The position numbers were made by a program, and so were the translations under genes. The notes under the pieces were generated by a model. It was not told where the DNA came from. It saw nothing but the letters and a program-made list of their open reading frames with translations, and searched no databases. Shown piece after piece: positions 2,951 through 30,859 of a stretch of 30,859 nucleotides of DNA. The stretch is from a virus (Duplodnaviria; Heunggongvirae; Uroviricota; Caudoviricetes): the IMG/VR virus record IMGVR_UViG_2740892488_000014; one strand, written 5' to 3'. The first letter of the stretch is position 1; each line of letters opens with the position of its first letter.

Positions 2951-3557
2951 TTACTTGCGTTTAAAAAGGTATTTTGTCACGACCAGCACGAGGCCGAATA
3001 CCTCTGTCAAAGTACCGCCCATGTACAACTGTAGTGTTAAATCCTCAAATTCCAGCTTACCTGCGCCGTCGGCAATAAATACACCATTCATTATCAGAAG
3101 TTGGAAAGCAAGGATAATCAGGAACCATTTCCCGTATCGTTTTTTTAGAGCGATTTCTGCTTCAAAATCTTTGTTGTTGAGTTGTTTGCGCTCATGCTCG
3201 GTATCAAGTGAATTCACCTGTTTCACAGATGTGAACTCGGTCAAGATTTTACTCTCAGTACGGGTGACTTGTTGAGAGGGTGTAGCAGTTGGAATTCTTT
3301 TGCTAGACGCAGCTACAGCCATTTTGCGAGCTTCGGCAGCTCTTTTTCTGGCTATTCCGCGAATACGGACAGCCGTTTTTTTTGGGGGCGTGCGAAACCT
3401 TTGGCTGAGGTGAAGCTTCGTCAGGAGACTGAACCGGAGTTTCATCGTCCTCCGGCTCAACCTCTTCTGCTAACTGACGGTGTAGGTTGAGGGAATCCTT
3501 CAGTCTGCGTGCTACTTCCTGTTTGAAACGGCTGTTAAAATCGTCATCCGATGGCAT
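2951..3557 (-). CDS. hypothetical membrane protein (acidic N-terminal region, two C-terminal TM helices); frame change at a homopolymer
   Basis: Two overlapping minus-strand ORFs (3303-3557 and 2951-3460) switch frame at the T8 run 3376-3383; the upstream part of one and the downstream part of the other read as protein, the remainders as junk. C-terminal hydrophobic stretches WFLIILAFQLLIMNGVFIA and LTEVFGLVLVVTKYLF. Starts 9 nt after the ImmA stop. Confidence 0.4.
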
Positions 3558-3566
3558 TTTAAAGCG

Positions 3567-4056
3567 TTACCCCAACCTCAAGTTCTTTAAACGATAAGTC
3601 ATCGCATCGTCAGATACGCCAAAATAATGCGCCATTATATAACTTGGTTGACCGTCAGCGTGCAGTTTTCTGACCTCATCTACCGGCATCAGAAGTTCTG
3701 CTGCGAACTTGTTTGCAAAAATTTCATCAGGATGCGTTCCGGCGCTTGCGGTTTCGCCACGTAAATCAACGTACTCATATTCATCGCTATGCGATGCTTG
3801 CCGGGCGATGTAATGCCCCAACTCATGCCCACATGAAAAAACGTTGACGAACTTTGTTGTCATCACTGTTTAGAAAGATCGCTGGATCTTGATCTTTTTG
3901 TTTAATCAGTGCGCCAGAAACTTTCCCAGGAAGATCGGTAATAAAAACATCTAATCCCATGTCGTGAGCAATTTTCGCTGGATCAACAGGGAAACCACGC
4001 CCGCACCAGAACGTGTCCAGCACTCGCCGGGCGTGCTCTCTTGGGTTGGTAGCCAT
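3567..4056 (-). CDS. ImmA/IrrE-family (COG2856-like) HExxH metallopeptidase; frame change at a homopolymer
   Basis: HELGH zinc-binding motif followed by …EIFANKFAAELLMP…, typical of ImmA/IrrE peptidases. Two ORFs (3823-4056 and 3567-3866) join across the A6 run 3836-3841; removing one base gives a continuous ~163-aa protein. GGAGGAG Shine-Dalgarno upstream of the 4056 start. Confidence 0.6.
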
Positions 4057-4130
4057 AGCTCCTCCAGTTACTGCATTACGATTATTGGTTGAAATATAGA
4101 CAGCATGTTCCGTACCACATTCCTGTAAAA

Positions 4131-4145
4131 GTGCAAATTCTGCAC
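4131..4145. promoter_or_regulatory. palindromic operator-like site GTGCAAATTCTGCAC upstream of the ImmA-like gene
   Basis: 5-bp inverted arms GTGCA/TGCAC around a 5-bp spacer, about 75-90 bp upstream of the ImmA start; 12 of 15 positions identical to the site at 4897-4911. Confidence 0.35.
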
Positions 4146-4432
4146 TTCTGGTACGATATTAACTGTTAGTAGTAAAGTCTTCCAGATAAATCACTTTAAA
4201 ATCTTGTGAATTGCTTGCTTTTTACGCTGTATTGTGGATGGTTCAATGTTTCCAGTAAAAACATACATGATAATCATGAGTTTAGTGTTTTTTTAGGCGT
4301 CTATATGTTTCTGGAAAATACAGGTCTAACCTGATCTTATCGTTGAGATTTTTTGTACTCAGTATGCGTGAACGATTCGACCAGGTGACTGTGTACGTGA
4401 AGAAGACCGCCCTTAATATTTTAAATGTGCAA

Positions 4433-4688: not shown

Positions 4689-4896
4689 AGTGATTCCTCA
4701 TGATATAAAGACCCAACAATATAAATTACCAGGCACATCATAAGATAGGGTTCCAGCCCATATTTTCAAATATTTGCAAGTATCACCGTTCAGTCTAAAA
4801 AGTTGGATGATGATTTAACGAGCCATAACAAAACCCTGCCTCGGAGGTTTTTTTCTTTTTTATAGAACTCAGCGGCGTGAAAACGAATAATAAATT

Positions 4897-5691: not shown

Positions 5692-5699
5692 ATAAATAT
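5692..5699. repeat. left copy of the 8-bp target-site duplication ATAAATAT
   Basis: Identical 8-mer directly abuts both termini of the element (5692-5699 and 7585-7592). Confidence 0.75.
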
Positions 5700-5727
5700 G
5701 GGTCTTCCCCGATCATGGTGGGAAGAC

Positions 5728-6948
5728 TCAGTACGCCATATTCAGTTTCCCATAGTGGAACATAACTCCCAGTTTAAAGCGTTCCCGGTTTCGGTATCCC
5801 CTGGCCTTTATCCTCAGCAGTCTGATCTTGCTGTTCAGCGCCTCCGCATTTCCATTCGAGACGCGATGACGCATTGCATTCAGTATTCCGTATAACCGTT
5901 TTTTAATGGTTTTCGCTGCGTTTTTCATCATCGGCACATCACATTCAGACGCCAGCGATATCCACTGCAACCAGTCATTCCTGCGTTCTGTGCTCCAGGG
6001 GCGATCCCAGATATTTTTTGCCAGCTCTTTCAGTGTCCAGCACTGGCTTGTCTGTTGCATCTGTTCCCGCAACCACATCAGCTTTTCCTGCCGGGACTCA
6101 GTCATCCATTTGTCGCTGTACTGCCACAGGAAGCGGGTACCTTTGGCCTGACGACGACTTTCAACAGGGAGGTGCGGATGTTCATTCTGGCGGGTTTTAT
6201 CAACCACTTCGCCCAGTTGCTTCGCCACATGGAAGCGATCGAAGGCGATTTTCTCGACCGCATTGGGTAAATGGATACGCGCTGCTCTTATATAGCCCGC
6301 ATTCATGTCCATCGACAGTGTTTTGATGGCCAACAACTGACTGTCAGTAAGCGAACGGAGATAGCTGGCAAGACTCTCTGTGCCACGATCATCGGTTAAT
6401 GCCAGTGCCCGCCCGTCGCGATCAGATACCACGGTTATATACCTATGCCCTTTTTTAAAGGCGACTTCGTCTACATTCATATGACGCACTGATAAAGGCT
6501 TTTTAATCCGCGACAGGCCTCGCTTAACCGCGCGGGTCATGATGCCGTCAACGGCATTCCAGCTAAGTTTAAGTTGTTTTCTGACCGCATCAACGGTGCT
6601 GATTTTAAGCCATGAGAGCACGAACGATTCGAACAGCAGAGTGTACCGACTGCCGGAACCTGCCCACGGTACAGGCAGAGTCTGGCAGCCATGCTCCGGG
6701 CACATAACGCGGGGAACATCGGCTTCTACTAATGTCATGAACTGGCAGGTATCAAGGTGGCGCCATTTACGATGTCGGTGATCGTGAACAGAACAGGATT
6801 TCCTGCAGGTCGGACAGGTTAACTGAGTATTTTCAGCAATTCCGACTGTAACAGTAACGGAACCTGCATTTTCATCGAGGGTAAGGGATTTAACCTGCCA
6901 TGGTGCAGTCAGGTTAAGGATATGGGCATAGAGGGATTTTTCGTCCAT
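5728..6948 (-). CDS. ISL3-family transposase
   Basis: 406-aa ORF with an N-terminal Cys/His cluster (CPTC…C…H) and central/C-terminal region (…VDEVAFKKGHRYITVVSD…FDRFHVAKQL…) matching ISL3 transposase architecture. Confidence 0.85.
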   Translation of the reverse strand: MDEKSLYAHILNLTAPWQVKSLTLDENAGSVTVTVGIAENTQLTCPTCRKSCSVHDHRHRKWRHLDTCQFMTLVEADVPRVMCPEHGCQTLPVPWAGSGSRYTLLFESFVLSWLKISTVDAVRKQLKLSWNAVDGIMTRAVKRGLSRIKKPLSVRHMNVDEVAFKKGHRYITVVSDRDGRALALTDDRGTESLASYLRSLTDSQLLAIKTLSMDMNAGYIRAARIHLPNAVEKIAFDRFHVAKQLGEVVDKTRQNEHPHLPVESRRQAKGTRFLWQYSDKWMTESRQEKLMWLREQMQQTSQCWTLKELAKNIWDRPWSTERRNDWLQWISLASECDVPMMKNAAKTIKKRLYGILNAMRHRVSNGNAEALNSKIRLLRIKARGYRNRERFKLGVMFHYGKLNMAY

Positions 6949-6966
6949 ATAATTTCATTCTGAAGC

Positions 6967-7485
6967 TTACTTTAAACTGATATTATTATTTTTTGCCCAC
7001 TTTCTTAATCTTCCATTAGCGTTGGCGTAAGGCGAAGATGTGTTAAATGAGATCATTCTCCCCATCGTCCATTTTGTGTACCATGGTCTTCCATACAAAA
7101 TATCATCGGTACGATCATTAATAAGGTTCACAATCTCATTTTTTACAGTCTGAAGTTCAGCTACTAACAACTCATAACTTAACTCACTGTAATCTGAGTA
7201 AAATTTTTGAGCAAGAAGGCCAAGCTGATTCCATTTATAGCCAGTTTCCGGAAAATCGACAGGCAGACCTTTAGCATCAGAAGCGATCCACTTTACAACA
7301 AGAGCATTCCATCCAAGCAGATACGAAACGAGATCACGAACACTCATCTCCGTTCCTTTGGCGTGTCCGTCCATTGATTTATCTGAAGTAATTTCTGGTG
7401 GGATTGTGTTGAGGTAACTAATTAATTTACTAAAATTTTTATCAATAGCTAAAAGCAGTTCAGCTTTTGTTTGCGGCACACTCAT
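6967..7485 (-). CDS. ClbS/DfsB-like (DUF1706) four-helix-bundle protein, passenger inside the ISL3 element
   Basis: 172-aa ORF; motifs GHAKGT, LVSYLLGW, FPETGYKWN, LAQKFY, YGRPWYTKWTMGRMI and FNTSSPY match my recollection of this family; lies between the transposase gene and the right inverted repeat. Confidence 0.5.
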   Translation of the reverse strand: MSVPQTKAELLLAIDKNFSKLISYLNTIPPEITSDKSMDGHAKGTEMSVRDLVSYLLGWNALVVKWIASDAKGLPVDFPETGYKWNQLGLLAQKFYSDYSELSYELLVAELQTVKNEIVNLINDRTDDILYGRPWYTKWTMGRMISFNTSSPYANANGRLRKWAKNNNISLK

Positions 7486-7584
7486 AAGAATTCCCTCTCA
7501 TGTAAAAAGAGACACCATAAAGGTACTGTGTGGTGTTTGAAAATCGCTCAATTATGTACCACCCACCACAACAGGGGAAGACCC

Positions 7585-7592
7585 ATAAATAT
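7585..7592. repeat. right copy of the 8-bp target-site duplication ATAAATAT
   Basis: Identical to 5692-5699, directly outside the right inverted repeat. Confidence 0.75.
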
Positions 7593-9929: not shown

Positions 9930-10189
9930 TGACCCTGCACTCTGTCCTCATCAATGCCAATGCAATTATTTGTCTGATGTTGGCACTACGGTTGATGTTT
10001 TTTCAAAAAACAGGCCGCTATCGTTTTTTTCATCTCACTAACTGCTTACCTCGCGATTCTGTCTGCTGCGTGGATAGCCCTACGAATTTTTTTACGGGAA
10101 ATATACGCAGGTTGATCCCGCAGAGTTCTTTCTCAACCTCACCATCTGTATTGCTGTCTGGCGGGCACGAGGGAATATTTCAAAAATAA
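9929..10189 (+). CDS. small membrane protein in the lysis cassette (possible holin partner)
   Basis: 86-aa ORF overlapping the holin stop; N-terminal hydrophobic helix AIICLMLALRLMFF; contains a T7 run, so its C-terminus is uncertain. Confidence 0.3.
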   Translation: MTLHSVLINANAIICLMLALRLMFFQKTGRYRFFHLTNCLPRDSVCCVDSPTNFFTGNIRRLIPQSSFSTSPSVLLSGGHEGIFQK

Positions 10190-11204: not shown

Positions 11205-11557
11205 GGTTGTTGTTTTTCTGTAATGATATCAATAAGTTCAAGATATATACATATATGGAAAACTTGTTCGGTAGTCTATCGATACAGCACAAAAGGATGG
11301 CTCGCTGCCAAAGTGAAAGCTTACGCTGATAATCAGATACACAAAGCTGATGTATGCAAACAAGTACGCCGCGAGGCTACAGTTGAGTTTGATGAACCTG
11401 ATGCGAGCCCCTAATTCCTGTCCTGAAAGGGAGATAGCCCCCTGGTCGCGGGTCCTTTCCGAAATCCAAAACACCGAGGGTCGGTAGACGCGCAAAAACT
11501 CGCTCGTTTTTAGTATTTTTTCATTTTGGGTATTTCCGGTTCCGGTGAGGATTTTTA

Positions 11558-12124
11558 ATGGCAAGTCAGGCTGAGGTTGCAGCACATTTACTGCTATCTG
11601 ATCGTCGTCTGCGCGATCTCGCAAAACTTCCGGGAGCACCAGTCCCACAAGGACGTGGTGATTGGGAGCTAGACGCATGGCGCCATTTTTATATTCGTTA
11701 TCTCCGGAGCAATAGACGCGACACAACTAGTAATGACGAACCGGAAGCGGGGGACAATTCTCCCGAAAAAAATCGCGAGCAGTGGCTGAAAAATGAGGAA
11801 CGACAGGAGCGAATCCTGATGGCACGAGTAAAACGCCGCATTCTCGCTAAACGCTACGCGCCAATTGAATTAATTAGCGTCGCTGTATCTCGCGTCGCCG
11901 TTGAATTACGTACCCGCGTCGAGTCGTGGCCACCACGCCTGAAAAAGGTCTGGCCGGAGATGCCGCAAGAGGCGAGCAGTGTATTACGAGAGGAGCTGGC
12001 GATAGCCTTAAATGAGTTGTCAGACATACGAATCGACTTCAGCGATTACGATGTCAGCGATATCGAACGCGATCTCGACAGGGTTGAATCCCTTGCGCGT
12101 GACGATACCGATGACGGGTGTTGA
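11558..12124 (+). CDS. terminase small subunit (lambda Nu1-like)
   Basis: 188-aa ORF immediately upstream of and overlapping the large-subunit gene; layout resembles lambda Nu1. Confidence 0.65.
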   Translation: MASQAEVAAHLLLSDRRLRDLAKLPGAPVPQGRGDWELDAWRHFYIRYLRSNRRDTTSNDEPEAGDNSPEKNREQWLKNEERQERILMARVKRRILAKRYAPIELISVAVSRVAVELRTRVESWPPRLKKVWPEMPQEASSVLREELAIALNELSDIRIDFSDYDVSDIERDLDRVESLARDDTDDGC

Positions 12125-13974
12125 GTGGGCTGATAAATATTTTTATCTCCCTGAGGGCTCCAGCCACATCGCTGGGCACTGGACGACTCAGCCGGTCCAG
12201 GTAGTGATGCTCAATATGATGACGAACGACGCGATAAAAATCGTGTCTGTTCGCAAATCAGCTCGTCTCGGTTATACAAAAATACTCGTCGCGGCGCTGC
12301 TCTATTTCGCTGAGCACAAAAAACGTAGTGCCGTGGTCTATCAGCCTATCGATGACGAATCGGATGGATTTGTCGCCGACGAGGTTGACCCCGCTATCGC
12401 CGAAATGCCAGTGATTCAGAAAATTTTCCCCGACTGGGATAAAAGCAACGAGCGTAACAATCTCCAGCGTAAAGAAATGAGCGGCGCGATTCTTGATTTT
12501 CGCGGCGCGAGTGCACCAGGAAATTTCCGGCGACTAACGAAACAGGTTGTCGAGGGTGACGAAGTTGACGGCTGGCCGCTGGAAGTTGCCAAAAAAGGCA
12601 AAGGCGAGGGCTCGCCCATCGAACTGGCGCTCGTTCGAATTAAAGGGGCAGCGTACCCGAAGGCGATTTTTGGTTCGACGCCGACCGTTACCGGCAAAAG
12701 TCATATCGAAATGCTCGAAGACGCTGCCGATCTGACGTTTCGTTTTTACCTGACATGTCCGCATTGTGGCGAGGAGCAGGTCCTGGTATTTGGTTTCGAC
12801 GGTATCGAATACGGCCTCAAATGGGATAACAGCCTGCAGACCAATGAGGCGAAATCGTCGTCCGCGTATTACCAGTGCTGCCACTGCCCGGAACATTTTT
12901 TACTATCGCGATCTCGAAAAAATGGAGTTCGGGGGGCGCTGGATAGCCGAGGACTGCACCTGGACCCGAGACGGCATTCATTTTTTTGATCATGACGGTG
13001 GCGTCGTTCGCGCGCCGAAACACGCTGCGATCGTGATAAACGCCCTGTATTCACTAAACCTCGATGGATGGGGCGAGATTGTCAGCGAGTGGCTGAAAGC
13101 GAAAGGCGACCCGCTCAAGGAAAAGACGTTTCATAACACGACGCTCGGCGAACTCTGGAGCGACGTGGCCAGCGAGCAGCTGGAGCACGATATTCTGGTT
13201 AATCGCCGGGAAAAATACGCCAGCCAGGTTCCTGACGGTGTTGTTTATATAACCGGCGGCATCGACTCTCAGACGTCCGGGCGCTACGAGTGTTATGTGT
13301 GGGGCTGGGGAGCCGAGGAGGAGTGCTGGCTGATTGATAAAACAATCGTCCTCGGTCGCTACGACGAGGAGGACACGCTGCAGCGCGTCGACGGAGTGAT
13401 TCGCAAACAATACCGGCGCAGCGACGGGACCACAATCGGCGTCAGTCGCTGGGCGTGGGATACCGGTGGTATAGATGCGCAGGTCGTTTATAACCGCTCG
13501 CTGAAACTCGGTCCGCTGTGGGTCATTCCAATCAAGGGCGCGAGCTCATACGGCCAGCCGGTCGTAAATATGCCTCGTACCCGTAACGCGAATAAAGTGT
13601 ATTTGTCGTTGATTGGGACAGATACAGCGAAAGACCTGCTCGCAATGCGCCTGCAGCTGGAACCCGACTCCAAATCGGCGACACCAGGTGCGATTCATTT
13701 TCCCAACGACGACGAAATATTCAGCACGACAGAGGCAAAACAGCTCGTCTCCGAGGTTCTGATCCCGAAACTCATTAACGGTCGCGTCGTTTATCGTTGG
13801 GACAACCAGGGCCGGCGAAATGAGGCGCTCGACTGCTGGGTGTACGGACTGGCAGCGCTGCGTATCAGTAAAATTCGTTTCCAGCTCAATCTCGAGACGC
13901 TCGCTGAGCAACGGAAAAAATCACAAAACAAACTGTCTCTCGAGGAGATGGCCAGAATGCTCGGAGGGAGCTAA
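12012..13974 (+). CDS. terminase large subunit (lambda gpA-like); frame change at a T6 run
   Basis: N-terminal GVEWADKYFYLPEGS… and C-terminal …WTRDGIHFF…TTLGELWS…YITGGIDSQ…CYVWGWG…IPIKGAS…ALDCWVYGLAALRIS match lambda gpA; the two ORFs (12012-12989, 12766-13974) join if the T-run 12896-12901 has one more T. Start codon uncertain (12012, 12051 or 12111). Confidence 0.85.
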
Positions 13975-15778: not shown

Positions 15779-17086
15779 TGCCGTGGAACAATTTTCCGCA
15801 CCTCGCCGCCAGGGCGTTCAATCAACCGCTTTTGCTGGAGCCCACCTACGCGCGGGTATTTTTTTTCGGCGCTGAGCGACCGGTTCGGTACCGGGCGACT
15901 GATTGATACAGCGTCTGGAGAGGTAATGAACAGCGACGAAATGAACGCGCTCGCGATGGGGTGGGACAGCAGCGAGCGAACACGCCAGAAATCGTATCGC
16001 GTGGAGCGTGGTATAGCCGTTCTGCCGGTTACCGGGACGCTGGTTCATAAATTGGGTTATATCAACCCAGTTAGCGGGATGAGCGGTTACAACGGAATCG
16101 CAAAACGCCTGCAGCAGGCGATTTCTGATCCCGATGTAAGAGGGGTCCTGCTTGATATTGACTCCCCTGGCGGTGAAGTCGCCGGCGCGTTTGATACTGC
16201 TGATTTAATCGCCCGGGCGCGAGAGCAAAAACCTGTGTGGGCGCTGGCCAGCGATACGGCCTGCAGCGCTGCCTATTTGCTGGCGTCAGCGTGTTCGCGC
16301 CGGCTGATAACGCAGACAGGCACAGTTGGTTCAATCGGTGTCCTGATGGCTCACCGCTGCGTCGAAAAAGCGCTGGAGATTGCTGGCGTCGACGTGACGC
16401 TGATTTACGCCGGCGCGCACAAAGTTGACGGGAACCCGTATTCCCAGCTGCCAGGCGACGTTCGCGACGAATTCCAGCTGAGTATTAACAGCACGCGCGA
16501 GCAGTTCGCGCAAAAAGTCTCGGATTATACCGGGCTGAAAAAATCCAGGGTGCTGGCCACGGAAGCTGCAGTATTTATCGGCGCGGACGCGATTAAATCT
16601 GGTCTCGCTGATCAACTCGTTAATTACGCGGACGCTATCGCAGTGATGGCCGACGCACTGAAACCAAAAATGGAGCGCTTTATGTCTGGTACAGAAACCA
16701 CGGCGGAGACCACGACCACAGAACAAACCGCGACCACGACTACTGTCGCGCAGGTTGAGTTTAACACGGAGCAGATTCGCGCGGACGCCGCATCAAGCGA
16801 ACTGGCGCGTGTGATGGCCATCATCAATTGTCCCGAAGCTGTTGGGCGCGAGGCGCAGGCAAAAGCGCTCGCTGGCGTCCCCGGGATGACGGTCGGGCAG
16901 GCGCAGGTAGTCCTCGCTGCAGCACCTAAAACGGCGCAGGCGCGGACAGAAACGGCGCTCGATACACTAATGAGCACTGAATCACCAGCGACTATTCAGG
17001 ATGCTGGCAGTACTACGGCAACAGGAACAACCGCAAACGTCTCGATGCTGGTTGCTGCAGGGCGTTCAATTTTAGGGGATGAATAA
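15778..17086 (+). CDS. head maturation protease / scaffold (lambda gpC/Nu3-like, S49 family); frame change at a T8 run
   Basis: ATG 15778 overlaps the portal stop; N-terminus FNQPLLLEPTYARVFF matches lambda C but stops after the T8 run 15859-15866; with one T fewer it continues into the 15926-17086 ORF (…GIAVLPVTGTL…GYNGI…LLDIDSPGG…KPVWALA…). Confidence 0.85.
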
Positions 17087-18509: not shown

Positions 18510-18530
18510 GAGTCGAAAGGCTCTTTTTTG
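18509..18530 (+). terminator. possible partial terminator between the major capsid and FI-like genes
   Basis: AGAGTC-GAAA-GGCTCT stem with a GNRA-type tetraloop followed by TTTTTT, directly after the capsid stop codon. Confidence 0.3.
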
Positions 18531-18543
18531 TTAAGGAATCAAC

Positions 18544-18963: not shown

Positions 18964-19341
18964 GCTACTACGATGACCTCCGGGCCGGCGACGAGGAGAT
19001 GATCCGTGAGTGGGGACGGCCCGTTAAATTACGCGGTAAAACCGACCCCATTATCGCTATTTTCAACGAGCCTTACGCGCGCGTTGACGTTCCTCACGCT
19101 GGTTTTATTACCGGTACAGTAACGAGCCTGACGGCGCTCTCGGACGACGTCGCTGGCGTTGTTGCGCGTGACGTCGTCCAGGTTCCAAAGCAGCGCAGCA
19201 TCGAACCTGACGGCTCTGTTACCTGGTCTGGCTGGACCGATTACGTGGTTAAAGAGCCTCAACCTGATGGCACAGGGCTCACGAATATTTTTTTTAGAGC
19301 CTCACACGTCCAGCGAAAACAGCGAGTATTCAAAATACTAA
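18960..19341 (+). CDS. head-tail joining protein (FII-like); 3' end ambiguous at a T8 run
   Basis: As written the ORF runs to 19472 and overlaps the next gene by 100 nt; 9 T's at 19288-19295 would stop it at …GLTNIFF (113 aa), 7 T's would stop it at 19341; both fit an FII-sized protein. Confidence 0.4.
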
Positions 19342-19372
19342 GTGGGACCTCGGTCCCACTTAAGGGGGAACC

Positions 19373-21469: not shown

Positions 21470-21471
21470 AG

Positions 21472-21813
21472 ATGCTTGGAATGGACCGTAACACCGGTAA
21501 ACTTTTATCGGGGACTGATCACATTCGTCAGTCTATCGTTGATATTTTAACGACCCCGCTGGGGACGCGTGTAATGCTGCCGGAATATGGCAGCAAATTA
21601 TTTGATCTTGTTGATAATCCCACAGATCCGTCGCTTGCTATGCGAATAATCATGGAAAGCGCTGGCGCAATAGCACGATGGGAACCACGCGTCAGAATTG
21701 ACAGAATAAATGTGTTAGCAGTGGATATCGGGAAAATAACAATATTAATTATCGCAACAGATATCGAAACACAACAGCGATTAGAGTTTAATAATATGGA
21801 GCTGATATTTTGA
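21472..21813 (+). CDS. baseplate protein (P2 gpW / gp25-like)
   Basis: MLGMDRNTGK…HIRQSIVDILTTPLGTRVMLPEYGS…WEPRV matches GPW/gp25. Confidence 0.8.
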   Translation: MLGMDRNTGKLLSGTDHIRQSIVDILTTPLGTRVMLPEYGSKLFDLVDNPTDPSLAMRIIMESAGAIARWEPRVRIDRINVLAVDIGKITILIIATDIETQQRLEFNNMELIF

Positions 21814-22730
21814 TAACATCAACAGTTCAGAATTCGATAGTGAAAACTATTGATATGAGTCTGCTGCCGCCGCCAGCATTCGTTAAAACCCCGTTATTTT
21901 CAGATGTTAAATCTAATCTACTGTCAGAGCTGCAGATATTATATCCACAATTTAACGCACTCCTGGAGTCAGACCCGGCCGTTAAACTGCTGGAAATAGT
22001 TGCATACAGAGAAATCATTATTACAGCTCGGGTAAATCAGGGGATGCTCGCTGTATTGCTCGCGTTTGCAAAGGGGAGTGACCTCGACCAGATTGGCGCT
22101 AATTTTGACTGCCTGCGGCTGTTGATAACGCCAGCTAATCCCGATGTAATTCCCCCGACTGAGGCTGTTTACGAGAGTGACGACGAGTATCGACACCGAA
22201 TACAGCTATCATGGTATGCGCGGAATACTGCCGGCAGTACGAACGCCTATAACTATTTCGCGCTGTCGAGTGATCCCGACGTTCTGTCAGCTCAGGCGTA
22301 CGGCCCGCCGGTGACCCAGCCTGGATACGTCGATATGTATGTCTTGTCGCGAACCGGCGACGGCACTCCGCCTCAATCACTACTGAATACAGTGAATGCG
22401 GCCCTGTCTCCTGACGATACTCGACCGCTGACTGATTTCGTGACTGTAAAACCTGCGTCGAACCTGAATTACCGGGTTGAGGCCGTTATCGTAGCCGGGC
22501 TCGGACCCGACCAGAACGTTTTGCTTAACGGTGCTCAGAGCGATTTGGCGATATATGTGGATACGCAACATAAAATCGGAGCGACGGCAGCTCTGTCAGG
22601 AATTTACGACGCGATACATCGTGACGGCACTGAACGTGTGATTCTGATATCGCCAACAGAGGATGTGATCGCTGGCGTCGGGCAGGCTCCGTACTGCACA
22701 GAAATCAAACTCAGCGTGCAAATGGGGTAG
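21810..22730 (+). CDS. baseplate protein (P2 gpJ-like)
   Basis: …LLPPPAF…ESDPAVKLLEIVAYRE…DLDQIGANF…TPANPDVIPPT…SDDEYRHRIQ… parallels P2 J; TTG start after a GGAG Shine-Dalgarno. Confidence 0.8.
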   Translation: MITSTVQNSIVKTIDMSLLPPPAFVKTPLFSDVKSNLLSELQILYPQFNALLESDPAVKLLEIVAYREIIITARVNQGMLAVLLAFAKGSDLDQIGANFDCLRLLITPANPDVIPPTEAVYESDDEYRHRIQLSWYARNTAGSTNAYNYFALSSDPDVLSAQAYGPPVTQPGYVDMYVLSRTGDGTPPQSLLNTVNAALSPDDTRPLTDFVTVKPASNLNYRVEAVIVAGLGPDQNVLLNGAQSDLAIYVDTQHKIGATAALSGIYDAIHRDGTERVILISPTEDVIAGVGQAPYCTEIKLSVQMG

Positions 22731-22732
22731 CC

Positions 22733-23359
22733 ATGACAAGTCAAAGCGTACTGCCTCCGAACGCAATAACCCCTGAGAGGGCGCTTGAGGTTGTTTTATC
22801 TCACGTCGGCGATCTGCCTGGCGATATTCGAATTATTAAAAATCCCGATTTGTGCCCTGCAAATCTGTTGCCGTGGCTGGCGTGGGAGTACGCGGTCACC
22901 TACTGGAACCCCGACTGGAGTGAGCAGCAAAAACGCGAAATTATTAAAGCAGCTGCGTGGCAGAATAAGCACCGCGGAACGCGTGGAGCTGTTGAACGAG
23001 CGTTATTAACTGTTGGCTTTGAGAGCAAAATGAGAGAGTGGTTTGAAGCCACGCCCAGGGACGACCCGTATACATTCGCAATTAAAATATATCTGCTAAA
23101 AAGCATGGGGTTAGATTTAGAACTATTGAATACATTTATTGCACAAATATTTGATGCAAAAAATTGTCGTTCCTTATTAAAAGAAATAAATTTCGAAACG
23201 GGTGTCGATGGTGAGTTTTTTATAGCCGGTACACCTTACGCGAAAATAGGCGTAAACGTCCCAGCAGACGGCGACGGCGGTGTAAAAATTAACGGCGGGC
23301 TATATATATCGGGCTCACCAATTGTTAGTTTAAATGTGGAGATAGGGCCAAATGGCTGA
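22733..23359 (+). CDS. baseplate/tail-fibre attachment protein (P2 gpI-like)
   Basis: …NPDLCPANLLPWLAWEY… matches P2 I; C-terminal half is AT-rich. Confidence 0.75.
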   Translation: MTSQSVLPPNAITPERALEVVLSHVGDLPGDIRIIKNPDLCPANLLPWLAWEYAVTYWNPDWSEQQKREIIKAAAWQNKHRGTRGAVERALLTVGFESKMREWFEATPRDDPYTFAIKIYLLKSMGLDLELLNTFIAQIFDAKNCRSLLKEINFETGVDGEFFIAGTPYAKIGVNVPADGDGGVKINGGLYISGSPIVSLNVEIGPNG

Positions 23360-24536
23360 AAATAAAATTTACGCAGTACTGACAGACCGTGGCGCACAAC
23401 TTGAAGCCGCTGCGCTGGCATCGGGTGTACCCGTGGTGCTGAATAAATTCGTTATTGGCGACGCAAACGGAAACGACGACGTAACACCGGACCCGGCACG
23501 AACTGCATTAATTCACGAGACGTATCGTGGGGATATTAAATCCGCAGAAAATAGCGGTAACCAGGTTATCTTTACACTTTACGTACCGCCAGACACTGGG
23601 GGCTATACTATCCGTGAGGTGGGGATATTAACAGATAAAGGCGAGCTGTACTCTGTGGCGCGCTCGCCGGACATTTTAAAACCTACGGACAGCAACGGTG
23701 CGCTGATTTCAATCACGTATAAATACACACTCGCGGTGTCCAGCACATCTACGGTTAATGTTGTAGTATATGACAACTACGTAACTCCCGAGGAAGCTGA
23801 CAAAAAATATTTGCAGATAAGTAAAAACTTATCTGAAATTCCCGCAAATGGTGAAACTGCTCAGCAGGCTGCGCGGAAAAATATTGGTATAGATGGGGAC
23901 GTTGCATATAGAGATAAGGGTAATGCATTTACTCATCCAAATACTTTTAAAGATGATGTGATTTTTGAAGACGTTTTATCCTCTAAAAAACAAATAAATA
24001 TAAACAAACCGGGCACTGATTTGACGTTGTTTTCATTTGCTGGTTTATCAGATGTGTCGGGCGATTATTTAGATTTTTCGACCCGTGGAGAAAACAATCA
24101 GAAGGTTTTTTATAGATTACGCGGAGTTCACTATGATGGCCTGGTGTTACTGTGCGGCGGGCAGACGTATAAATACTGGAATGAGGCTAATCTTAAACCG
24201 GTTAAAACGATTAACGGGGAGTCGCCGGATGAAAATGGCAACATAGATATAAGTCTTTCACCGGACCCATCACCGGAAATAGGTGTTGTTGGCGCGGTTG
24301 GTACTTATGCGCTTGTCGCTATTAATCATGCACCACAAATACTCCCGGGCTCCATATGGGCTGGAGGGGATTTATATTACGCTAGTATAAATAATACCGG
24401 TTCATATAACACGGATATTGCCACAAAACCATTTTATGACACACCACTTATTGGCTCATGGCGAGCCATGGCGTATTCACCCGGTGGAGTCGGTGATATT
24501 GGGACTGCCTGTTTTTTAGCTATTAGGATTGCGTAA
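23352..24536 (+). CDS. tail fibre protein (P2 gpH-like N-terminus, divergent C-terminus)
   Basis: N-terminal YAVLTDRGAQLEAAALASGVPVVLNKFVIGDANGNDDVTPDPARTALIHE…IREVGIL matches the conserved tail-fibre N-terminal domain; the C-terminal two-thirds is AT-rich. Confidence 0.75.
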   Translation: MAENKIYAVLTDRGAQLEAAALASGVPVVLNKFVIGDANGNDDVTPDPARTALIHETYRGDIKSAENSGNQVIFTLYVPPDTGGYTIREVGILTDKGELYSVARSPDILKPTDSNGALISITYKYTLAVSSTSTVNVVVYDNYVTPEEADKKYLQISKNLSEIPANGETAQQAARKNIGIDGDVAYRDKGNAFTHPNTFKDDVIFEDVLSSKKQININKPGTDLTLFSFAGLSDVSGDYLDFSTRGENNQKVFYRLRGVHYDGLVLLCGGQTYKYWNEANLKPVKTINGESPDENGNIDISLSPDPSPEIGVVGAVGTYALVAINHAPQILPGSIWAGGDLYYASINNTGSYNTDIATKPFYDTPLIGSWRAMAYSPGGVGDIGTACFLAIRIA

Positions 24537-24925
24537 TGATAAGCGTTGATTCATTTAGAAAAATAACAAACCCTGTTTTTAATGACGAGCATGGGTTATC
24601 TATAAATATTATTTGCGATATTGACGGGATTGGAAACGACATTCCATTCACCGCAATGAAAAATGATTGCGAGGAACACGGTAGGGTTTTATATGAAAGA
24701 GCGCTGAGCGGGGATTATGGGAGCATTTCTAAATTTGTAAAAAAAGAGCAGACGCAAAAACTCCAGACTACATTACGGACTGTTGGCGATCTGTCAATTG
24801 AGGCATTCTCAATTCAGTGTGCAGTAGATGCCGGAACCGCATCTGACGCGCAAATCGAAAATTTGGCCGAGCTTAAAGAAGCAATAGCGACGCGAATTGG
24901 TGAAAATAGAGAAGGAATAAAATGA
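24536..24925 (+). CDS. putative tail fibre assembly chaperone
   Basis: 129-aa ORF directly after the tail-fibre gene with ATGA overlaps on both sides; AT-rich; called by position and weak C-terminal resemblance to Tfa proteins. Confidence 0.4.
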   Translation: MISVDSFRKITNPVFNDEHGLSINIICDIDGIGNDIPFTAMKNDCEEHGRVLYERALSGDYGSISKFVKKEQTQKLQTTLRTVGDLSIEAFSIQCAVDAGTASDAQIENLAELKEAIATRIGENREGIK

Positions 24926-26425
24926 GCGTAACTAATTTTTTACACGGTATTCGCACGCTCGAATACGACGACGGCACAAAAGAGATCAACACAGTAGATA
25001 TTTCCGTGATTGGGATTGTTGGTACTGCTCCCGATTCCAGCTACCCAACTTGTGCATCACTATTATGGGGATCAGAGCTCGCAGACAATCTTGTTGAGTT
25101 TTCGACTGTCATGCCAGGGGCCGACGGAAACAACTGGATTGTTGAAATTGTTGATTTGGGAATTAACGGGAATGTAGCAACTCCAGGATACAGCACACTG
25201 CCCGACGGTTCGAGAAAATTAACAATGATCACGGACGGTGCCATGACCCCGTCAAAAATGTACGATCAGAACCAGCAGTATAAAGAAGGACTCCAGATTG
25301 GAGAATATATTAACGTCACATTCGGTGGTGATCACGCAGGAACGGGGACTGTATTCGCGCTCCCCCCAACAAATTTATCCGGTGGTAAAGACGAATCGTT
25401 CAAATATAATGTTCCGACGTTAATTGCAGGCAGTCAAAAAAAAAGCTGGATTGCTCGGTGGGTCTGGAACCCTTCCTCCCGCTGTATCTGAAATACTAAA
25501 TCAGGAGGATGCCATTATTGTTGTTGTCCGCGTCGAAGAGGACAGCGACGAAACAAAAATGCGGCAGAACGTCGTTAACGGGATTAACGCATTGTTGACG
25601 TCTGCGCAAATAAATCAAGTAACGCCGAGAATTTTAATCGCTCCAGATTATAGTGCTAACGATTATATTGCAGAACAACTTGAAGTGGTGACAAATAAAT
25701 TACGAGGCGTTGGATATATCGATTCACCGCGAGGCGCTACGCCTGCTGACGTTGTAAATCGTCGTCAGAGGTACGGCGGCAGAATGGAAATTCTGCGCCC
25801 TCGTGTTTATTCTACGAGTGATGTTAGTGGTTTATCTCGTCCGTATTCAGCTATCGCTGCTGGTTTACGAGCCAGAATTGATAACGAAAAAGGGTTTTGG
25901 TGGAGCAAATCGAATCAAAATATCTACGGAATTACAGGACTCGAACAAGTCGATGATTTTATAATCGGTGAAACGAACTGCACAGCAAATCTGCTGAACG
26001 CCAGCCAGGTCAGCACAATTATTCGCTATGATGGATTCAGACACTGGGGTAACTATCTGTGTAGCCTCAGTCCCCAATGGTCCTTTGAATGCGTTCGTCG
26101 GACAGCTGACGTAATTGAGGATTCAATAGCCCGGGCAATGATGACCGATTTTATTGATCGCCCGATAGACCTGCACCTCGGAACAGACGTTGTAGAGTCG
26201 ATAAACGCGTATCTGCATAAATTAGAGGAGCAGGGCGCGATTAACGGAGGACGGGCGTGGTTAGATGAAGAGTTAAATACAAAAGAAAGTCTGGCCGCTG
26301 GTAATCTTTATATTAATGTTGACTTTGGACCGAAATCCCCGGCACAAACAATTACGTTAATGTACCGCATTAATAATGATTACACAGTTGAAGCTCTGGC
26401 CTCTCTTTTTAAAGAAACAGTCTAA
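24922..26425 (+). CDS. contractile tail sheath protein; frame change at an A9 run
   Basis: N-terminus MSVTNFLHGIRTLEYDDGTKEINTVDISVIGIVGTAPDS and C-terminal region (…ARIDNEKGFWWSKSNQ…IRYDGFRHWGN…NLYINVDFGPKSP…) are typical of sheath proteins; ORFs 24922-25491 and 25424-26425 join if the A-run 25436-25444 has one A fewer. Confidence 0.85.
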
Positions 26426-26442
26426 TAATCTGGAGAATTGAT

Positions 26443-26955
26443 ATGGCAGATAGTAACACCTATCGTGCATTTGCGTTGTTCGTCCAGGGAGAACGAGTTT
26501 TAAATTGCACTGAATACACTCCCGTCGATATGAAAATAATCGAAGATGATTTTAAGACGGGCGCTATGGATACAGCTATCACTCTGGACGGGGGAATGGA
26601 GAAAATGTCAGCCAGTTTTAAAGTCTCTGGCTCCGATTCTGGTGTGATGGGGTATTTGGGATTAATACCAGGTGCTAAAACAAGGTTCGAAATTCGAAGT
26701 GCATATACTGACAATTACGGTGTCAATTTTGAACGTATTGATACATATGAGGGGCTTATTACGGCGATTACTGATGACGCGCAGGGGACTGATTCAAAAT
26801 CAGCAGTTGGGCAATCAGTAACGATTGCGCCGAGCTATTATAAACGAGTTCAAAATGGAAAAATTATTTACGAGATTCATCCTGCAAAAATGAAACGAGT
26901 AATTAATGGTGTTGACGTTCTTGCGGGCGTTGCTCGTATTCTCCATGTATATTAA
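26443..26955 (+). CDS. tail tube protein (P2 FII-like)
   Basis: 170-aa ORF directly after the sheath gene with GGAGAA Shine-Dalgarno; size and position match the tube protein. Confidence 0.7.
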   Translation: MADSNTYRAFALFVQGERVLNCTEYTPVDMKIIEDDFKTGAMDTAITLDGGMEKMSASFKVSGSDSGVMGYLGLIPGAKTRFEIRSAYTDNYGVNFERIDTYEGLITAITDDAQGTDSKSAVGQSVTIAPSYYKRVQNGKIIYEIHPAKMKRVINGVDVLAGVARILHVY

Positions 26956-26967
26956 AAGGCAAATAAA

Positions 26968-27249
26968 ATGGAATCATTATTAGACAGTATGACTATTACG
27001 CTCTCTCGCCCGTTTATTATTAAGGGGGAGAGCCGCGATACAATTACTATTCGCGAACCAAAATTACGCGACCGCATTATGTTCAGTAACGATAAAAGTG
27101 GTCTTGAAGAGCGGACAGCGACAATGCTGGCGCGCCTGGCAAATCTGGAGCGTGAGGATTTATATGCACTGCCTGCGTGCGATTACGATCAAATGGAGGC
27201 CGCATTTAACGAACTGGTAAAGCCTCCGAAAGACCGACATCAGATATAG
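26968..27249 (+). CDS. tail assembly chaperone (P2 gpE-like), with an overlapping -1 frame extension (E'-like) to 27380
   Basis: 93-aa ORF before the tape-measure gene; a 55-codon open -1 frame (27210-27380) overlaps its 3' end and the tape-measure start, as in the conserved chaperone frameshift arrangement. Confidence 0.65.
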   Translation: MESLLDSMTITLSRPFIIKGESRDTITIREPKLRDRIMFSNDKSGLEERTATMLARLANLEREDLYALPACDYDQMEAAFNELVKPPKDRHQI

Positions 27250-27357
27250 TTATTCTGATTCCGTTTATTGCGAAAAAACTTGCCATCCCGCCCGATACGC
27301 AAATGGACCTGCCGTACCGGGTTTTTAATTTCTATGTAAACGAGGTCATGAAAATCG

Positions 27358-28997
27358 ATGGCTATTTCTCAAAACTTTAAAACGCAGGTTGTATTCGGTG
27401 GGCGAATAGACCCGTCGTTTCGTCGCGGTACAACAGAACTCAATGATGCGATTCGGCAGACGTCGTCTACTGTCGGGAAATTAACGAAAAGTCAGGATAA
27501 ATTAAAAGACAAAATCGCAGCAATGAAACTGGCAGGTAAAGACGTTTCTGATTTATCTGCTCAGTATCAAAAGCTGGACCGTCGAATAAAAGCGACAACG
27601 CAGGACCAGGAGGCGCTGAATACTCAACTTGCTAAAAAACAGCGGCTGGAGAAGTGGACGGGTCGCGCAAAAGGAGCTGCAAAATGGGGCGGACGAGCCG
27701 CCGCAGGTGCGGTGAGGGCTACGGGGCGGGGTATCAAATGGGGGACACTTGGCGCGGCAGGGCTCATTGGCGGTGCTGCAGCTGGTGCGCTGGCAATGAA
27801 TGCAGAGACGTCAGAAAAACTCGGTCTGGCGAAGTCCTACGGCGTTGGCGTCGAAAAATACGCTGCGTGGGAAAATATTGGTAAAGCCGCGGGCCTGAAC
27901 GGCGAAAATATCGGGGATTTGTCTGAAGAACTTACAAATAAAATCGGCGAAATCGGAAACGAAAAAAGCCTGAATCCCATGTTATTTCAAATTGGCCTGA
28001 CGAAAAAACGAATGGCTGGCTGGGATCGGGAAAAACAGTTTAATGAGGTTATGCGTCGCATCTCTGAAATGAAAGATGAGAAGCAAGCGGCGAGCCTCGC
28101 TGACCAGCTCATGGGGGGCGAGGCTAATAAGATCATGACGTATATGAAGGCGACGGGTAAAAGCTGGGAACAGACAATGTCTGACGCGCAAAAGTCGAAT
28201 TTGTTAACAAAAGAGGGTGCGGAAGGGGCGGCGCGTGCGCATGTATCAGTGACAAATCTGTGGGGCTCTATTACGTCGGGACTTGCAGATACACTCGGTA
28301 AAATCGGGGGGGAACTCGCGCCGACGTTTGACTCAGTACGTGAAACATTTACATCCTGGTTTAAGGATAATCAGGGTGGTTTTGTCAGCACAATTACTGA
28401 GTGGGTAAAACCAGAAAATATGAAAAAATGTGGGATGGCATCGTCAATTTTGGAGAAGGTTGCGTCAAATTCGGGAAGATTATATGGGCTGTCGTAAAGA
28501 AACTGGAGTGGCTTATTCCGGATGAAAAATCAGATGAAGAACAGAAAACTTATAATGACGAATATAATCGGGCATATCAAGAGTTTATGGATTCGGGAGG
28601 TAAATATTCACCGAACGCTGGATTGACTGCTGATAATATTGCGAAGGCAAAAGCCGAAGAGGCTGTCGAAAATATGCGGCATCCAGAACGGCAAGAACAG
28701 GCAAAATCTCAGGCAGAATCAATGCTCGCGTTTGTTAATCCATTATCCGGGATGGTAAATAAAAATACCGCGCCTGCAGCACTGGATTCGTCGACGTTAA
28801 ATATTGATACGTTGAAGCAGGCAGTCTCGACACCTGCGCCGGAGCAAAACAATAAAATCGAAATCAATATTGTCGGTGCGACAGATCCGCAGTCAATACA
28901 ACAATCTGCAGCGTCGGGGGTGCTCGATGGACTGAGACAGGCTGCGAGTTCGTACAATCGTGGCGCGATGTTTGATAAACCAGCTGCGGCGGGGTGA
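27358..28997 (+). CDS. tail tape-measure protein; frame change at an A6 run
   Basis: Long helical Ala/Gly/Lys-rich protein following the chaperone; ORFs 27358-28497 and 28401-28997 join if the A-run 28423-28428 has one more A (…PENMKKMWDGIVNF…). Confidence 0.8.
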
Positions 28998-29422
28998 CAA
29001 TGAGTGATGCAATAAACGGTGCTGAGGATATCATGCTCGGCCTGGGTGATTTCATTTTTGCTATATCAACAGTAGCGTACAACAAACTGCAACGTAGTGA
29101 CGCCTGGCGCTGGGCTCAGCAAACACGATTCGGGAAAAACGACGCGTTGCAGATAACCGGACGACCGAACCCCACAATTACTATCGATGGAAAGATAAAC
29201 GCTTTATTTCTTGACGGGTGCGGCGTCGGCCTGTTGACAGATTTGCGAGCGCTCGGGAACACGGGAGAACCCCAGCAGCTAGTGCTGGGGACCGGGGAGG
29301 TGAAAGGGTACTGGGTGCTGCGAGAACTAACTGAAACGCAAAACAGCTTTTTGATGGGCGGAACACCTAAATCGCAGGACTTTTCACTCACGCTCGAATA
29401 TTATGGAGCTTCGCTAGATTAA
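28994..29422 (+). CDS. tail protein (P2 gpU-like)
   Basis: 142-aa ORF; …GYWVLRELTETQNSFLMGGTPKSQDFSLTLEYYG resembles gpU; start GTG 28994 or ATG 29000. Confidence 0.7.
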   Translation: MTMSDAINGAEDIMLGLGDFIFAISTVAYNKLQRSDAWRWAQQTRFGKNDALQITGRPNPTITIDGKINALFLDGCGVGLLTDLRALGNTGEPQQLVLGTGEVKGYWVLRELTETQNSFLMGGTPKSQDFSLTLEYYGASLD

Positions 29423-29597
29423 TACAAAATCAAGCGCTACCAGAGCACTTAACAAGTATAAAAATAATAAAAAAAAACTACGAACATAAATGTAAAACAA
29501 CCTGATGGTATTTTTTTTTGACGCCGAAATACTAATACCTCTCCGACTACTAAAATTAATTCTCATTATGAAATCCTTTTAATTAATGGGGCCCCAA

Positions 29598-29811
29598 ATG
29601 ATTACATACACTACACGGGACGGTGACCGTCTCGATCAGATCTGCCTTGCGGTCTACGGGAGAGCGTCAAAAACGACAGAGACTGTTTTATATCAGGTTT
29701 CGAATTACGGCGTAACGGATATGTGTGCCGTGTTTCGTGCTGGAGAAAAAAATTGTTTTACCAGATATCGAACCAGAGCCGGTTAAAAAAGAAACGCAAT
29801 TATGGGATTGA
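29598..29811 (+). CDS. tail protein X (P2 gpX-like, LysM-type); frame change at an A7 run
   Basis: N-terminus MITYTTRDGDRLDQICLAVYGR matches gpX; with one A fewer at 29746-29752 the reading continues …EKIVLPDIEPEPVKKETQLWD and stops at 29811, matching the gpX C-terminus. Confidence 0.65.
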
Positions 29812-29814
29812 TGA

Positions 29815-30859
29815 ATGAGTGATTACGTAAATACTGGCGTGGAGGCGTGGAAACCTAATTTTTATATATCTGCTGATAATAAAAACATCACGGATAAAAT
29901 AAGAAAAGGTTTGATCAATATCACGCTGACAGATTACGGCGGCTCCAGTAAACAGACAGACGAACTCCGCGTAGCAATAGTTTCTGAAACTCTGAAAATT
30001 CCGGCCCGCGGAGTAAAAATCAGTATTGGGCTCGGTTTCGGTAATCAGATAATTGATAAAGGGATATACATCGTTGACGGTGCTAGCAGTGGCGGTGAAC
30101 CCCGGGTAGTTGATTTCACAGCAAAAGCGGCTCCGATGAACGCAGCAAAAGGATCTCCGACAGTTCAGAGCAAAAAGACTCGTTCCTGGAGCGACGTCAC
30201 TGTCAGCGATATCGTTGCGACAATAGCGAGCGATAATGGGCTAAAACCACGCGTATCAAAGCGGTTTGCAGACAATGTTATCACGCAACTCGATCAGGTC
30301 GGCGAGTCAGATATGCACCTGATGTCGCGGCTCGCAACGAGATTCGATGCGGTGAGTAAACCCGCGGGCGGGTACTGGATATTCCTGCCGCGCGGCGCGG
30401 GCGAATCTGTTAGCGGTGCTCCGCTCCAGCACTACACGCTAACTCGTCGTGATAACTCCAGCTGGGGCTATTCGAGAAATGGACAAAGTGGCGATAGTGG
30501 TAGCGGTGGCGAAAATCCGGAACCGACGTATCTGATTAAATATCACGACACAGCAACTGGGCAGATCAAAGAATTGCGGACAAGGTAGTGGCGGCGATCC
30601 TGTCATTGAATGGCCGGCAGTTGAGCCGTCGCTCGACGCAGCGAAAGAAGCTGCACCAGGGCTCAAGGGCGGTGCAGCTAAAAAAGAGTTCTCTATGACG
30701 TACACGACGCCAGCGACGCTCGATTTAGTGTCGCTGACAGCAGAATGCAAAGTCACAACTCAAGGTTTCGGGACCGAGGAGGACCGGGACTGGACTATCA
30801 ACACACTGAGTCTGACGCTCGCTGAAAACGGTTTTTCGGTTCGGCTGTCTCTGGAGTAA
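29815..30859 (+). CDS. tail protein D (P2 gpD-like); frame change near 30568-30576
   Basis: N-terminal and middle regions (…KGIYIVDG…SWSDVTVSDIVATIASDNGL…ESDMHLMSRLA…YHDTATGQIK…) match gpD; the C-terminal 95 codons in the next frame (…WTINTLSLTLAENGFSVRLSLE) match the gpD C-terminus and stop at the last base of the window. Confidence 0.8.

Follow-up and report, generated by a model that had tools for sequence, protein, structure and literature searches.

Single-base indels at A/T runs of an E. coli prophage sequence: probable homopolymer length miscalls and an inherited frameshift in gpD

The window analysed here, the whole stretch of 30,859 nucleotides filed as IMG/VR record IMGVR_UViG_2740892488_000014, is a prophage with a lambda-type head and a P2-type tail, present in over 420 complete genomes of E. 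coli. Its sequence is very probably an error-containing consensus of this well-known E. coli (ST131-type) element with lambda-like head and P2-like tail genes, and nearly all of its run indels, gpD excepted, can with high confidence be ascribed to the miscalling of homopolymer length rather than to biology. The sequencing or consensus process would over-count A/T homopolymers by one base, with a chance of miscalling that climbs from about 3% in five-base runs to 100% in eight-base runs. Eighteen such +1 miscalls would break ten genes (the islet gene, the 201-aa hypothetical protein, ImmA, holin, terminase large subunit, protease C, major capsid, FII-like, sheath and gpX) and change three intergenic runs, and the strain's own DNA should be free of these +1 frameshifts. 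The importance of the result is practical and not biological.

Comparison with reference genomes

The comparison of positions 544-30859 of the window with S65EC, the best reference, showed 19 single-base indels and no substitution over 30.3 kb. All 19 are located in A/T runs of at least five bases, 18 being insertions and one a deletion (Table 1). With strain 4/4 as the reference the same 19 indels were recovered together with one substitution, and none of the 19 is present in either of these two complete genomes, which were compared base by base. Moreover, the record ON470624, obtained from Illumina HiSeq 2500 reads by SPAdes assembly, is 100.000% identical to S65EC across 26.5 kb; it has no substitution relative to the window and lacks all 13 of the indels that fall in its covered region.

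Table 1. Single-base length differences between the window and the reference or intact alleles (sites numbered as in the earlier note)
Position	Strand	Window	Reference	Change	Gene or location	Site	Also in
12..21 (about positions 14 and 18)		GCGTGACGAG	GCCGTGACCGAG	two single-C deletions	ISEc52 end fragment		
2050..2055	+	T6	T5	+1	AT-rich islet gene WP_000536231.1, 232 aa		
2057..2063	+	T7	T6	+1	islet gene WP_000536231.1		
2121..2128	+	A8	A7	+1	islet gene WP_000536231.1		Logan ERR13868052
2130..2137	+	A8	A7	+1	islet gene WP_000536231.1		
2329..2337	+	T9	T8	+1	islet gene WP_000536231.1		
3376..3383	-	T8	T7	+1	hypothetical protein WP_001138663.1, 201 aa ('membrane protein')	1	
3836..3841	-	A6	A5	+1	ImmA/IrrE metallopeptidase, 162 aa	2	
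4848..4854		T7	T6	+1	intergenic		
10024..10030	+	T7	T6	+1	holin-family gene, 90 aa		Logan ERR13868052
10087..10093	+	T7	T6	+1 (second in this gene)	holin-family gene, 90 aa		
12896..12901	+	T6	T5	+1	terminase large subunit, 620 aa	3	
15859..15866	+	T8	T7	+1	S49 peptidase / protease C, 435 aa	4	GCA_024546825.1
18313..18319	+	A7	A6	+1	major capsid, 344 aa	5	
19288..19295	+	T8	T7	+1	FII-like head-tail joining, 126 aa	6	Logan ERR13669416
25436..25444	+	A9	A8	+1	tail sheath, 500 aa	7	
28423..28428	+	A6	A7	-1 (only one)	tape measure, 546 aa	8	
29469..29477		A9	A8	+1	intergenic		
29511..29519		T9	T8	+1	intergenic		
29746..29752	+	A7	A6	+1	tail protein X (gpX), 70 aa	9	
30582..30583	+	AA	single A (intact allele)	+1	gpD, baseplate hub	10	

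An earlier note, made from the letters of the window alone, had listed ten frame changes, nine of them at A/T homopolymers, and had read them as systematic sequencing or assembly error rather than decay. The coordinates and lengths of the nine runs proved exact, and each run lies inside the gene named for it, one base off the intact reference allele, so that the gene is broken. The list was incomplete, since ten further run indels (2055, 2057, 2128, 2130, 2329, 10024, 10087, 4848, 29469 and 29511) as well as the two single-C deletions in the ISEc52 fragment are missing from it; five of the additional indels fall in one gene of the AT-rich islet, which bears out the caution that had been advised for ORF boundaries in that region. 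The statement that the changes run in both directions is literally true but describes a one-sided pattern, because eight of the nine homopolymer sites, and gpD, need a base removed and only 28423 needs one added. The argument built on mixed signs is accordingly weak, the indels being 18:1 towards insertion, and the conclusion of systematic error is upheld on other grounds, namely the 19 run indels with no substitution, the dependence on run length, the intergenic hits and the clean Illumina record.

An insertion of ISEc53 occupies 5700-7584 and an ISEc52 junction is found at 543/544. The ISEc53 copy contains no indel, but it is underpowered as an internal control: it holds five six-base runs and none longer, for which about 0.6 errors are expected. 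Four database records labelled 'phage' were considered as evidence for particle production and were rejected, since they were predicted with PHASTER in Illumina drafts and are silent on inducibility.

Distribution of the indels and their occurrence in other assemblies

The share of reference A/T runs altered in the window rises with length, from 3/109 at five bases through 6/52 at six and 6/17 at seven to all four of the eight-base runs. All 19 differences fall within the 3.4% of the aligned sequence that consists of A/T runs of at least five bases (p about 1e-28), and the sign bias of 18:1 gives p about 8e-5 in a two-sided sign test. The excess of indels over substitutions (19:0) has p < 2e-6 even on the assumption that every second mutation is an indel. 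Whether mismatch repair is active or not, natural mutation gives substitution rates comparable to or above those of indels (PMC5854121), so that 19:0 does not represent a mutational spectrum. The specificity for A/T over G/C was not significant (Fisher p = 0.23), long G/C runs being few (21 of at least five bases). Coding and intergenic runs were both altered, the latter (3 of the 19 indels) at similar rates, and essential virion genes are included, which argues that no purifying selection has acted on the changes.

Frame-restored versions of the genes, for which the earlier note had suggested a search in related genomes, were found to be the norm in about 440 genomes. The window allele was present in none of 443 complete genomes for the terminase (12896) and none of 443 for the major capsid gene (18313), in 1 of 441 for protease C (15859), in none of 417 for the sheath (25436), where several draft and Logan assemblies also have it, and in none of 427 for the tape measure (28423). 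The five tracts tested in this way were essentially invariant in length among complete genomes; sharing by descent was found for gpD only, and at none of the five homopolymer sites. Exact look-ups of the truncated products of the window (capsid, 315 aa; FII-like, 170 aa; gpX, 66 aa; and the ImmA, membrane-protein and terminase fragments) returned no record.

Changes of the same kind were encountered in other assemblies of the prophage. Logan ERR13868052, which carries an identical prophage, showed 22 single-base insertions and no deletion, in GCA_024546825.1 insertions were found at 11 homopolymer sites, with two bases gained at one of them, besides a single deletion, and ERR13669416 and ERR1739590 had four +1 and eight -1 indels, respectively. 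At least three other public data sets have the same insertion bias on this prophage, and indels of this kind hit different sets of runs from one noisy assembly to the next; the tape-measure A7 run, for instance, is A6 in the window and A8 in GCA_024546825.1. In long-read assemblies, homopolymer indels that fragment genes are documented as the principal class of error (PMC12007338). The window shares with the Kastor-type long-read or flow-based errors described there the confinement of single-base indels to runs, the splitting of genes into adjacent fragments, the lack of substitutions and the disappearance of the changes against short-read references. It differs from them in sign and composition, since the documented errors are mostly false deletions (PMC12007338), whereas those of the window are almost all insertions and occur only in A/T runs.

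The gpD frameshift

The extra base in gpD is a genuine inherited frameshift in most carriers of the prophage, judged from the distribution of the alleles: among the 435 complete genomes with the element, 364 have the gpD allele of the window and 69 the intact 347-aa gene, and gene D is also split in the Illumina record ON470624. The frameshifted product has 257 aa and ends at a TAG stop at 30586-30588, while about 90 C-terminal codons of the ancestral gene run on in another frame to 30859. The frame-restored 347-aa protein aligns end to end with homologues of 347-354 aa from six genera. The Pfam family Phage_GPD matched residues 120-178 only, below the gathering score, whether the 257-aa or the 347-aa form was searched; the ancestral form is thus settled by the homologue search and not by the Pfam match. 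The earlier note had located a frame break near 30568-30576 and counted it among the assembly errors; the break is real, the extra base lies 6-7 nt further downstream, and its attribution to assembly does not hold. The note had also concluded that the prophage, if the changes were real, would be cryptic. This may be partly correct, though through the inherited gpD frameshift, which suggests that the widespread form of the prophage may be tail-defective anyway. With 364 of 435 carriers, the frameshift is usable as a lineage marker.

Alternative readings and consequences for annotation

The tape-measure deletion may be either an error of opposite sign or a rare real allele. It is possible, and put forward here tentatively, that the picture is a mixed one, in which most of the indels are errors and the tape-measure -1, possibly together with the sheath +1, represents real hot-spot alleles; the prophage would then be without tape measure and/or sheath, besides being without an intact gpD. 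The change at 28423 is the only deletion among the 19, and the insertion-biased ERR13868052 has none at all. Moreover, a Logan contig common to eight samples, ERR6876163 among them, departs from the reference by the tape-measure A6 alone, and in GCA_964044565.1 this allele is found with no other A/T-tract indel, the only other indel there being an AA-to-A change that restores gpD. The truncated 379-aa tape-measure product is RefSeq WP_346711130.1; Logan SRR25438603 has the sheath A9 and no other indel, and 324-aa sheath fragments occur on 265 contigs. The occurrence of A6 and A9 alone in otherwise clean contigs shows that both runs can vary without a globally noisy assembly. Against this reading, neither allele was seen in the complete genomes surveyed at these two sites. 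In addition, the deletion-biased noisy sets ERR1739590 and ERR5984423 also have A6, which makes the site error-prone in both directions, and since all four eight-base runs of the window gained a base, the sheath A9 needs no special cause.

Real decay, that is, a cryptic prophage in which relaxed selection has allowed about 19 true frameshifts to collect by slippage at A/T tracts, is very unlikely. True lesions do exist (the gpD frameshift, the ISEc53 insertion and the ISEc52 junction), so that selection on particle formation may already be relaxed, and the tape-measure A6 and sheath A9 do stand as sole indels in other samples. As in the natural decay of cryptic prophages, the gpD +1 is inherited, is carried by 364 genomes and lies outside any long run. 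The other sites of the window differ in this respect, not being common by descent with any relative. Decay is also contradicted by 19 indels with zero substitutions, by the alteration of every eight-base run, by the similar rates in intergenic runs and by the five sites tested in about 440 complete genomes, where the window alleles are lacking bar one record for the protease; since the window is otherwise identical to genomes free of these indels, decay would need the indels to have arisen in a burst, before any other divergence had time to build up. Still less likely is that the A/T-tract expansions are real products of substitution-free slippage, with A9 and T9 partly rescued by transcriptional slippage, or, in a more modest version, that A6 and A9 are recurrent hot-spot inactivations of the ST131 contractile tail. 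In that modest version the two alleles, on top of the fixed gpD frameshift, would be signs of a domestication or decay still in progress.

A mismatch-repair-deficient host or a slippage-prone polymerase, producing real homopolymer indels genome-wide, is extremely improbable. Mismatch-repair-deficient bacteria concentrate single-base indels in homopolymers at a rate that rises with run length, as in the window, but their spectrum is rich in transitions, the loss of repair raising substitutions 85- to 317-fold and indels 102- to 142-fold (PMC5854121); the window has no transition in 30.3 kb. Furthermore, 6e-4 indels per base would mean that a 5-Mb genome carries about 3,000 frameshifts, enough to break a large part of its essential genes.

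In other systems, RNA polymerase can slip on runs as long as A9 or T8-T9, and the tail-chaperone gene contains, at about 27200-27370, a real candidate for programmed frameshifting of the E/E' type. The probability that the tracts are functional, programmed ribosomal frameshifting or transcriptional slippage keeping the genes expressed, is nevertheless vanishingly small, since the in-frame versions prevail in other genomes, five- to six-base and intergenic runs are shifted as well, and conserved frameshift architecture is present at none of the sites. Phase variation was rejected: one-base changes of mononucleotide tracts switch frames at contingency loci by slipped-strand mispairing, as they do in the window, but phase-variable tracts vary in length between high-quality genomes and belong to specific surface or restriction genes, whereas the affected tracts of the window are spread over head, tail, lysis and intergenic DNA, and the five tested show essentially no variation among about 440 complete genomes.

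If the insertions are miscalls of run length, reading the window at face value gives eleven falsely broken genes, ten through the +1 changes and the tape measure as well if its -1 is an error, and these lead to the wrong call of a cryptic, particle-defective prophage. Such fragments have already entered public protein databases, as the RefSeq tape-measure entry and the sheath fragments illustrate. At about 6e-4 indels per base, the remaining source assembly probably contains thousands of such breaks, and it needs polishing ahead of any analysis of gene content or pseudogenes. The two single-C deletions in the ISEc52 fragment are probable errors of another type, outside A/T runs; the best full-length matches of this fragment in complete genomes are 122 nt long, compared with 120 nt in the window, at 98.4% identity.

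Length differences in homopolymer runs

The stretch from 11500 to 30859 of the window is at least 99% identical to more than 420 complete Escherichia coli chromosomes and four GenBank 'phage' records match it too. Strain 4/4 (NZ_CP023826) has the region as a prophage adjoining yecA/tyrP. Length differences first showed in the matches to the references, which fell six or seven bases short of the 19,360-base query. Comparison with strain 4/4, in two collinear blocks, gave one substitution, together with 20 single-base indels that all lie in mononucleotide runs. The best reference, S65EC (NZ_CP036245), shares the ISEc53 insertion of the window, and positions 544-30859 aligned with it in one piece with no substitutions and 19 indels, 16 of which fall inside 11 genes of the reference annotation. 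The 15 coding insertions break ten genes, the other three insertions being intergenic.

Single-base run indels of the window relative to S65EC (+1, one base more in the window; -1, one base fewer), with the occurrence of the window allele in complete genomes
Feature	Change	Window position	Complete genomes with window allele
Islet gene (AT-rich islet)	+1, five times	2055, 2057, 2128, 2130, 2329	
201-aa hypothetical protein (one site), holin (two sites), intergenic (three sites)	+1 each	3376 (hypothetical protein), 4848 (intergenic), 10024 and 10087 (holin), 29469 and 29511 (intergenic)	
ImmA	+1	3836	
Terminase large subunit	+1	12896 (T6)	0/443
Protease C	+1	15859 (T8)	1/441
Major capsid	+1	18313 (A7)	0/443
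FII-like gene	+1	19288	
Sheath	+1	25436 (A9)	0/417
Tape measure	-1	28423 (A6)	0/427
gpX	+1	29746	

The earlier note had listed ten frame changes, nine of them at A/T runs. All nine runs are present at the positions and with the lengths it gave and all recur among the 19 indels, although ten further run indels had escaped it. The window contains 98 runs of at least six A/T or at least five G/C, so that runs as such are common and the point at issue is whether the lengths of these particular ones are wrong.

The probability of an altered length rose with the length of the reference A/T run, from 3/109 at five bases through 6/52 at six and 6/17 at seven to 4/4 at eight, and no run shorter than five bases was altered. 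None of the 21 G/C runs of at least five bases differed, a number too small to establish real A/T specificity (p = 0.23). The sign of the indels was biased 18:1 toward insertion (p about 8e-5), and the chance that 19 random differences would all land in A/T runs of at least five bases, which make up 3.4% of the sequence, is about 1e-28. ON470624 and its sister records are PHASTER-predicted prophages from SPAdes assemblies of Illumina HiSeq 2500 reads (bioRxiv 10.1101/2022.06.29.498070); ON470624 was 100.000% identical to S65EC over 26.5 kb, and 13 run indels were the sole differences of the window from it within the shared part. Short queries around individual sites gave the allele counts in the table. 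Length dependence, sign bias, absence of substitutions, the clean Illumina record and the allele counts together constitute an error signature. The reading of the eight listed insertions as homopolymer sequencing or assembly error, which the earlier note had proposed, is thus supported, and it covers ten further insertions of this kind as well; the tape-measure deletion could be either an error or a real allele.

The sites at the tape-measure gene and gpD

The tape-measure run at 28423 is the sole deletion among the 19. That A6 is a real allele of the isolate, as opposed to an error, is possible but less likely than not. It is the only difference from the reference in a contig common to eight samples of the Logan public assemblies (ERR6876163); it occurs in GCA_964044565.1, where the only other indel is a single-base change that restores gpD and no further homopolymer run is affected; and its 379-aa product is a RefSeq entry. 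Against this, A6 is absent from all complete genomes and is also seen in deletion-biased noisy data sets. The sheath A9 is likewise the sole indel in SRR25438603, but all four eight-base runs of the window gained a base, so that A9 needs no separate explanation here.

The tenth frame change, in gpD, had been placed at 30568-30576, a region which reads AAAGAATTG and in which no difference between the window and the references was found. The 257-aa product of the window is annotated as WP_001296153.1. In GCA_964044565.1 the sequence GGACAGG stands in place of GGACAAGG (30578-30585), and the gene is then open to 347 aa. The alignment of this longer product with homologues of 347-354 aa in E. coli, E. 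fergusonii, Salmonella, Enterobacter, Cronobacter and Citrobacter covered 99-100% of its length, which makes it the ancestral form. The missing ~90 codons are present in the window in another frame, ending exactly at 30859, and are labelled 'Gene D protein' in the Illumina record. Among complete genomes the frameshifted allele was found in 364 and the one-base-shorter allele, annotated as a VgrG/Pvc8-family protein, in 69. The frame break, correctly flagged earlier as unlike the others, is therefore a real and widespread frameshift, that is inherited decay and no assembly error. Since gpD is the baseplate hub in P2-like tails, the common form of the prophage may already be tail-defective.

Origin of the run indels and other copies of the prophage

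In wild-type mutation accumulation the indel rate is roughly one fifth of the substitution rate, and both climb by some two orders of magnitude when mismatch repair is lost (PMC5854121); 19 indels to no substitutions accordingly matches no natural spectrum, that of a mutator included.

Other assemblies of the prophage were reached through exact look-ups of the truncated products of the window and compared with S65EC. In the Logan contig ERR13868052 all 22 indels were single-base insertions in runs, and it has the double insertion in the holin gene and several of the sites in the islet in common with the window. GCA_024546825.1 had one deletion and eleven sites of homopolymer insertion, at one of which two bases were added; ERR13669416 had four single-base insertions and one deletion, while ERR1739590 had the opposite bias, with eight single-base deletions. 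The indel sets coincide at the longest runs and otherwise differ; the A7 run of the tape-measure gene is A6 in the window and A8 in GCA_024546825.1. The pattern looks like stochastic, platform-dependent miscalling of run length on one invariant template. Homopolymer indels that fragment genes are documented as the chief type of error in long-read assemblies (PMC12007338). The errors reported in that paper are mostly false deletions, so the insertion bias of the window suggests another chemistry or another route of polishing.

No new biological feature is involved; the value of the result is a warning that the gene calls of the window need polishing and, by extrapolation, those of the whole source assembly (error density about 6e-4 indels per base). 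Several public assemblies of the prophage (L004, L006, L007, L010, L011) carry homopolymer frameshifts of their own, and the protease T8 occurs in one record of the 'complete genome' set (NZ_CM190152.1). Public databases contain the resulting protein fragments, among them WP_346711130.1 (379 aa) and a sheath fragment of 324 aa seen on 265 contigs.

Layout of the prophage and insertion sequences

The virion module (11558-30859) is a mosaic of lambda-type head and packaging genes (A, W, B, C, D, E, FI, FII-like: terminase, gpW, portal, S49 protease C, decoration protein, major capsid, FI and the FII-like gene) and a P2-type contractile tail (V, W/gp25, J, I, fibre H, sheath, tube, chaperone E, tape measure T, U, X, D), all listed as intact in the annotation of strain 4/4. 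The tail-assembly-chaperone gene (PF10109; 26968-27370) has an open -1 frame extension reaching the start of the tape-measure gene, the same layout as the programmed frameshift of P2 E/E'; it would be a true, functional frameshift, outside the ten sites of the earlier note.

The AT-rich islet (1000-3000) has 32-34% GC compared with 45-57% elsewhere, and contains one gene for a 232-aa hypothetical protein (WP_000536231.1), which is shattered in the window by the five run indels. The intergenic G run at 1214-1221 is G8 in the window and S65EC, whereas strains 4/4 and 23366 and Logan ERR13868052 have G9; either the tract truly varies or some of the compared assemblies are in error.

At its start (1-543) the window lies within the end of an ISEc52 copy, of the IS3 family, which directly adjoins the prophage's LprI-family gene. 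The exact 543/544 junction was found in no complete genome, and in strain 23366 ISEc52 lies about 517 bp further away; the junction may have arisen by a deletion next to the IS, by an independent insertion or through an assembly join at a repeat. Two C residues that every full-length copy of the fragment in complete genomes has are missing from it here, at about positions 14 and 18. A complete ISEc53 (ISL3 family; 5700-7584), carrying a gene for a 406-aa transposase and a ClbS/DfsB-family passenger gene, is inserted in the early region. It is bounded by terminal inverted repeats (GGGTCTTCCCC...) and flanked by direct repeats at 5692-5699 and 7585-7592, an 8-bp duplication of the target, ATAAATAT. 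S65EC and about a dozen further complete genomes have this insertion; strain 4/4 does not.
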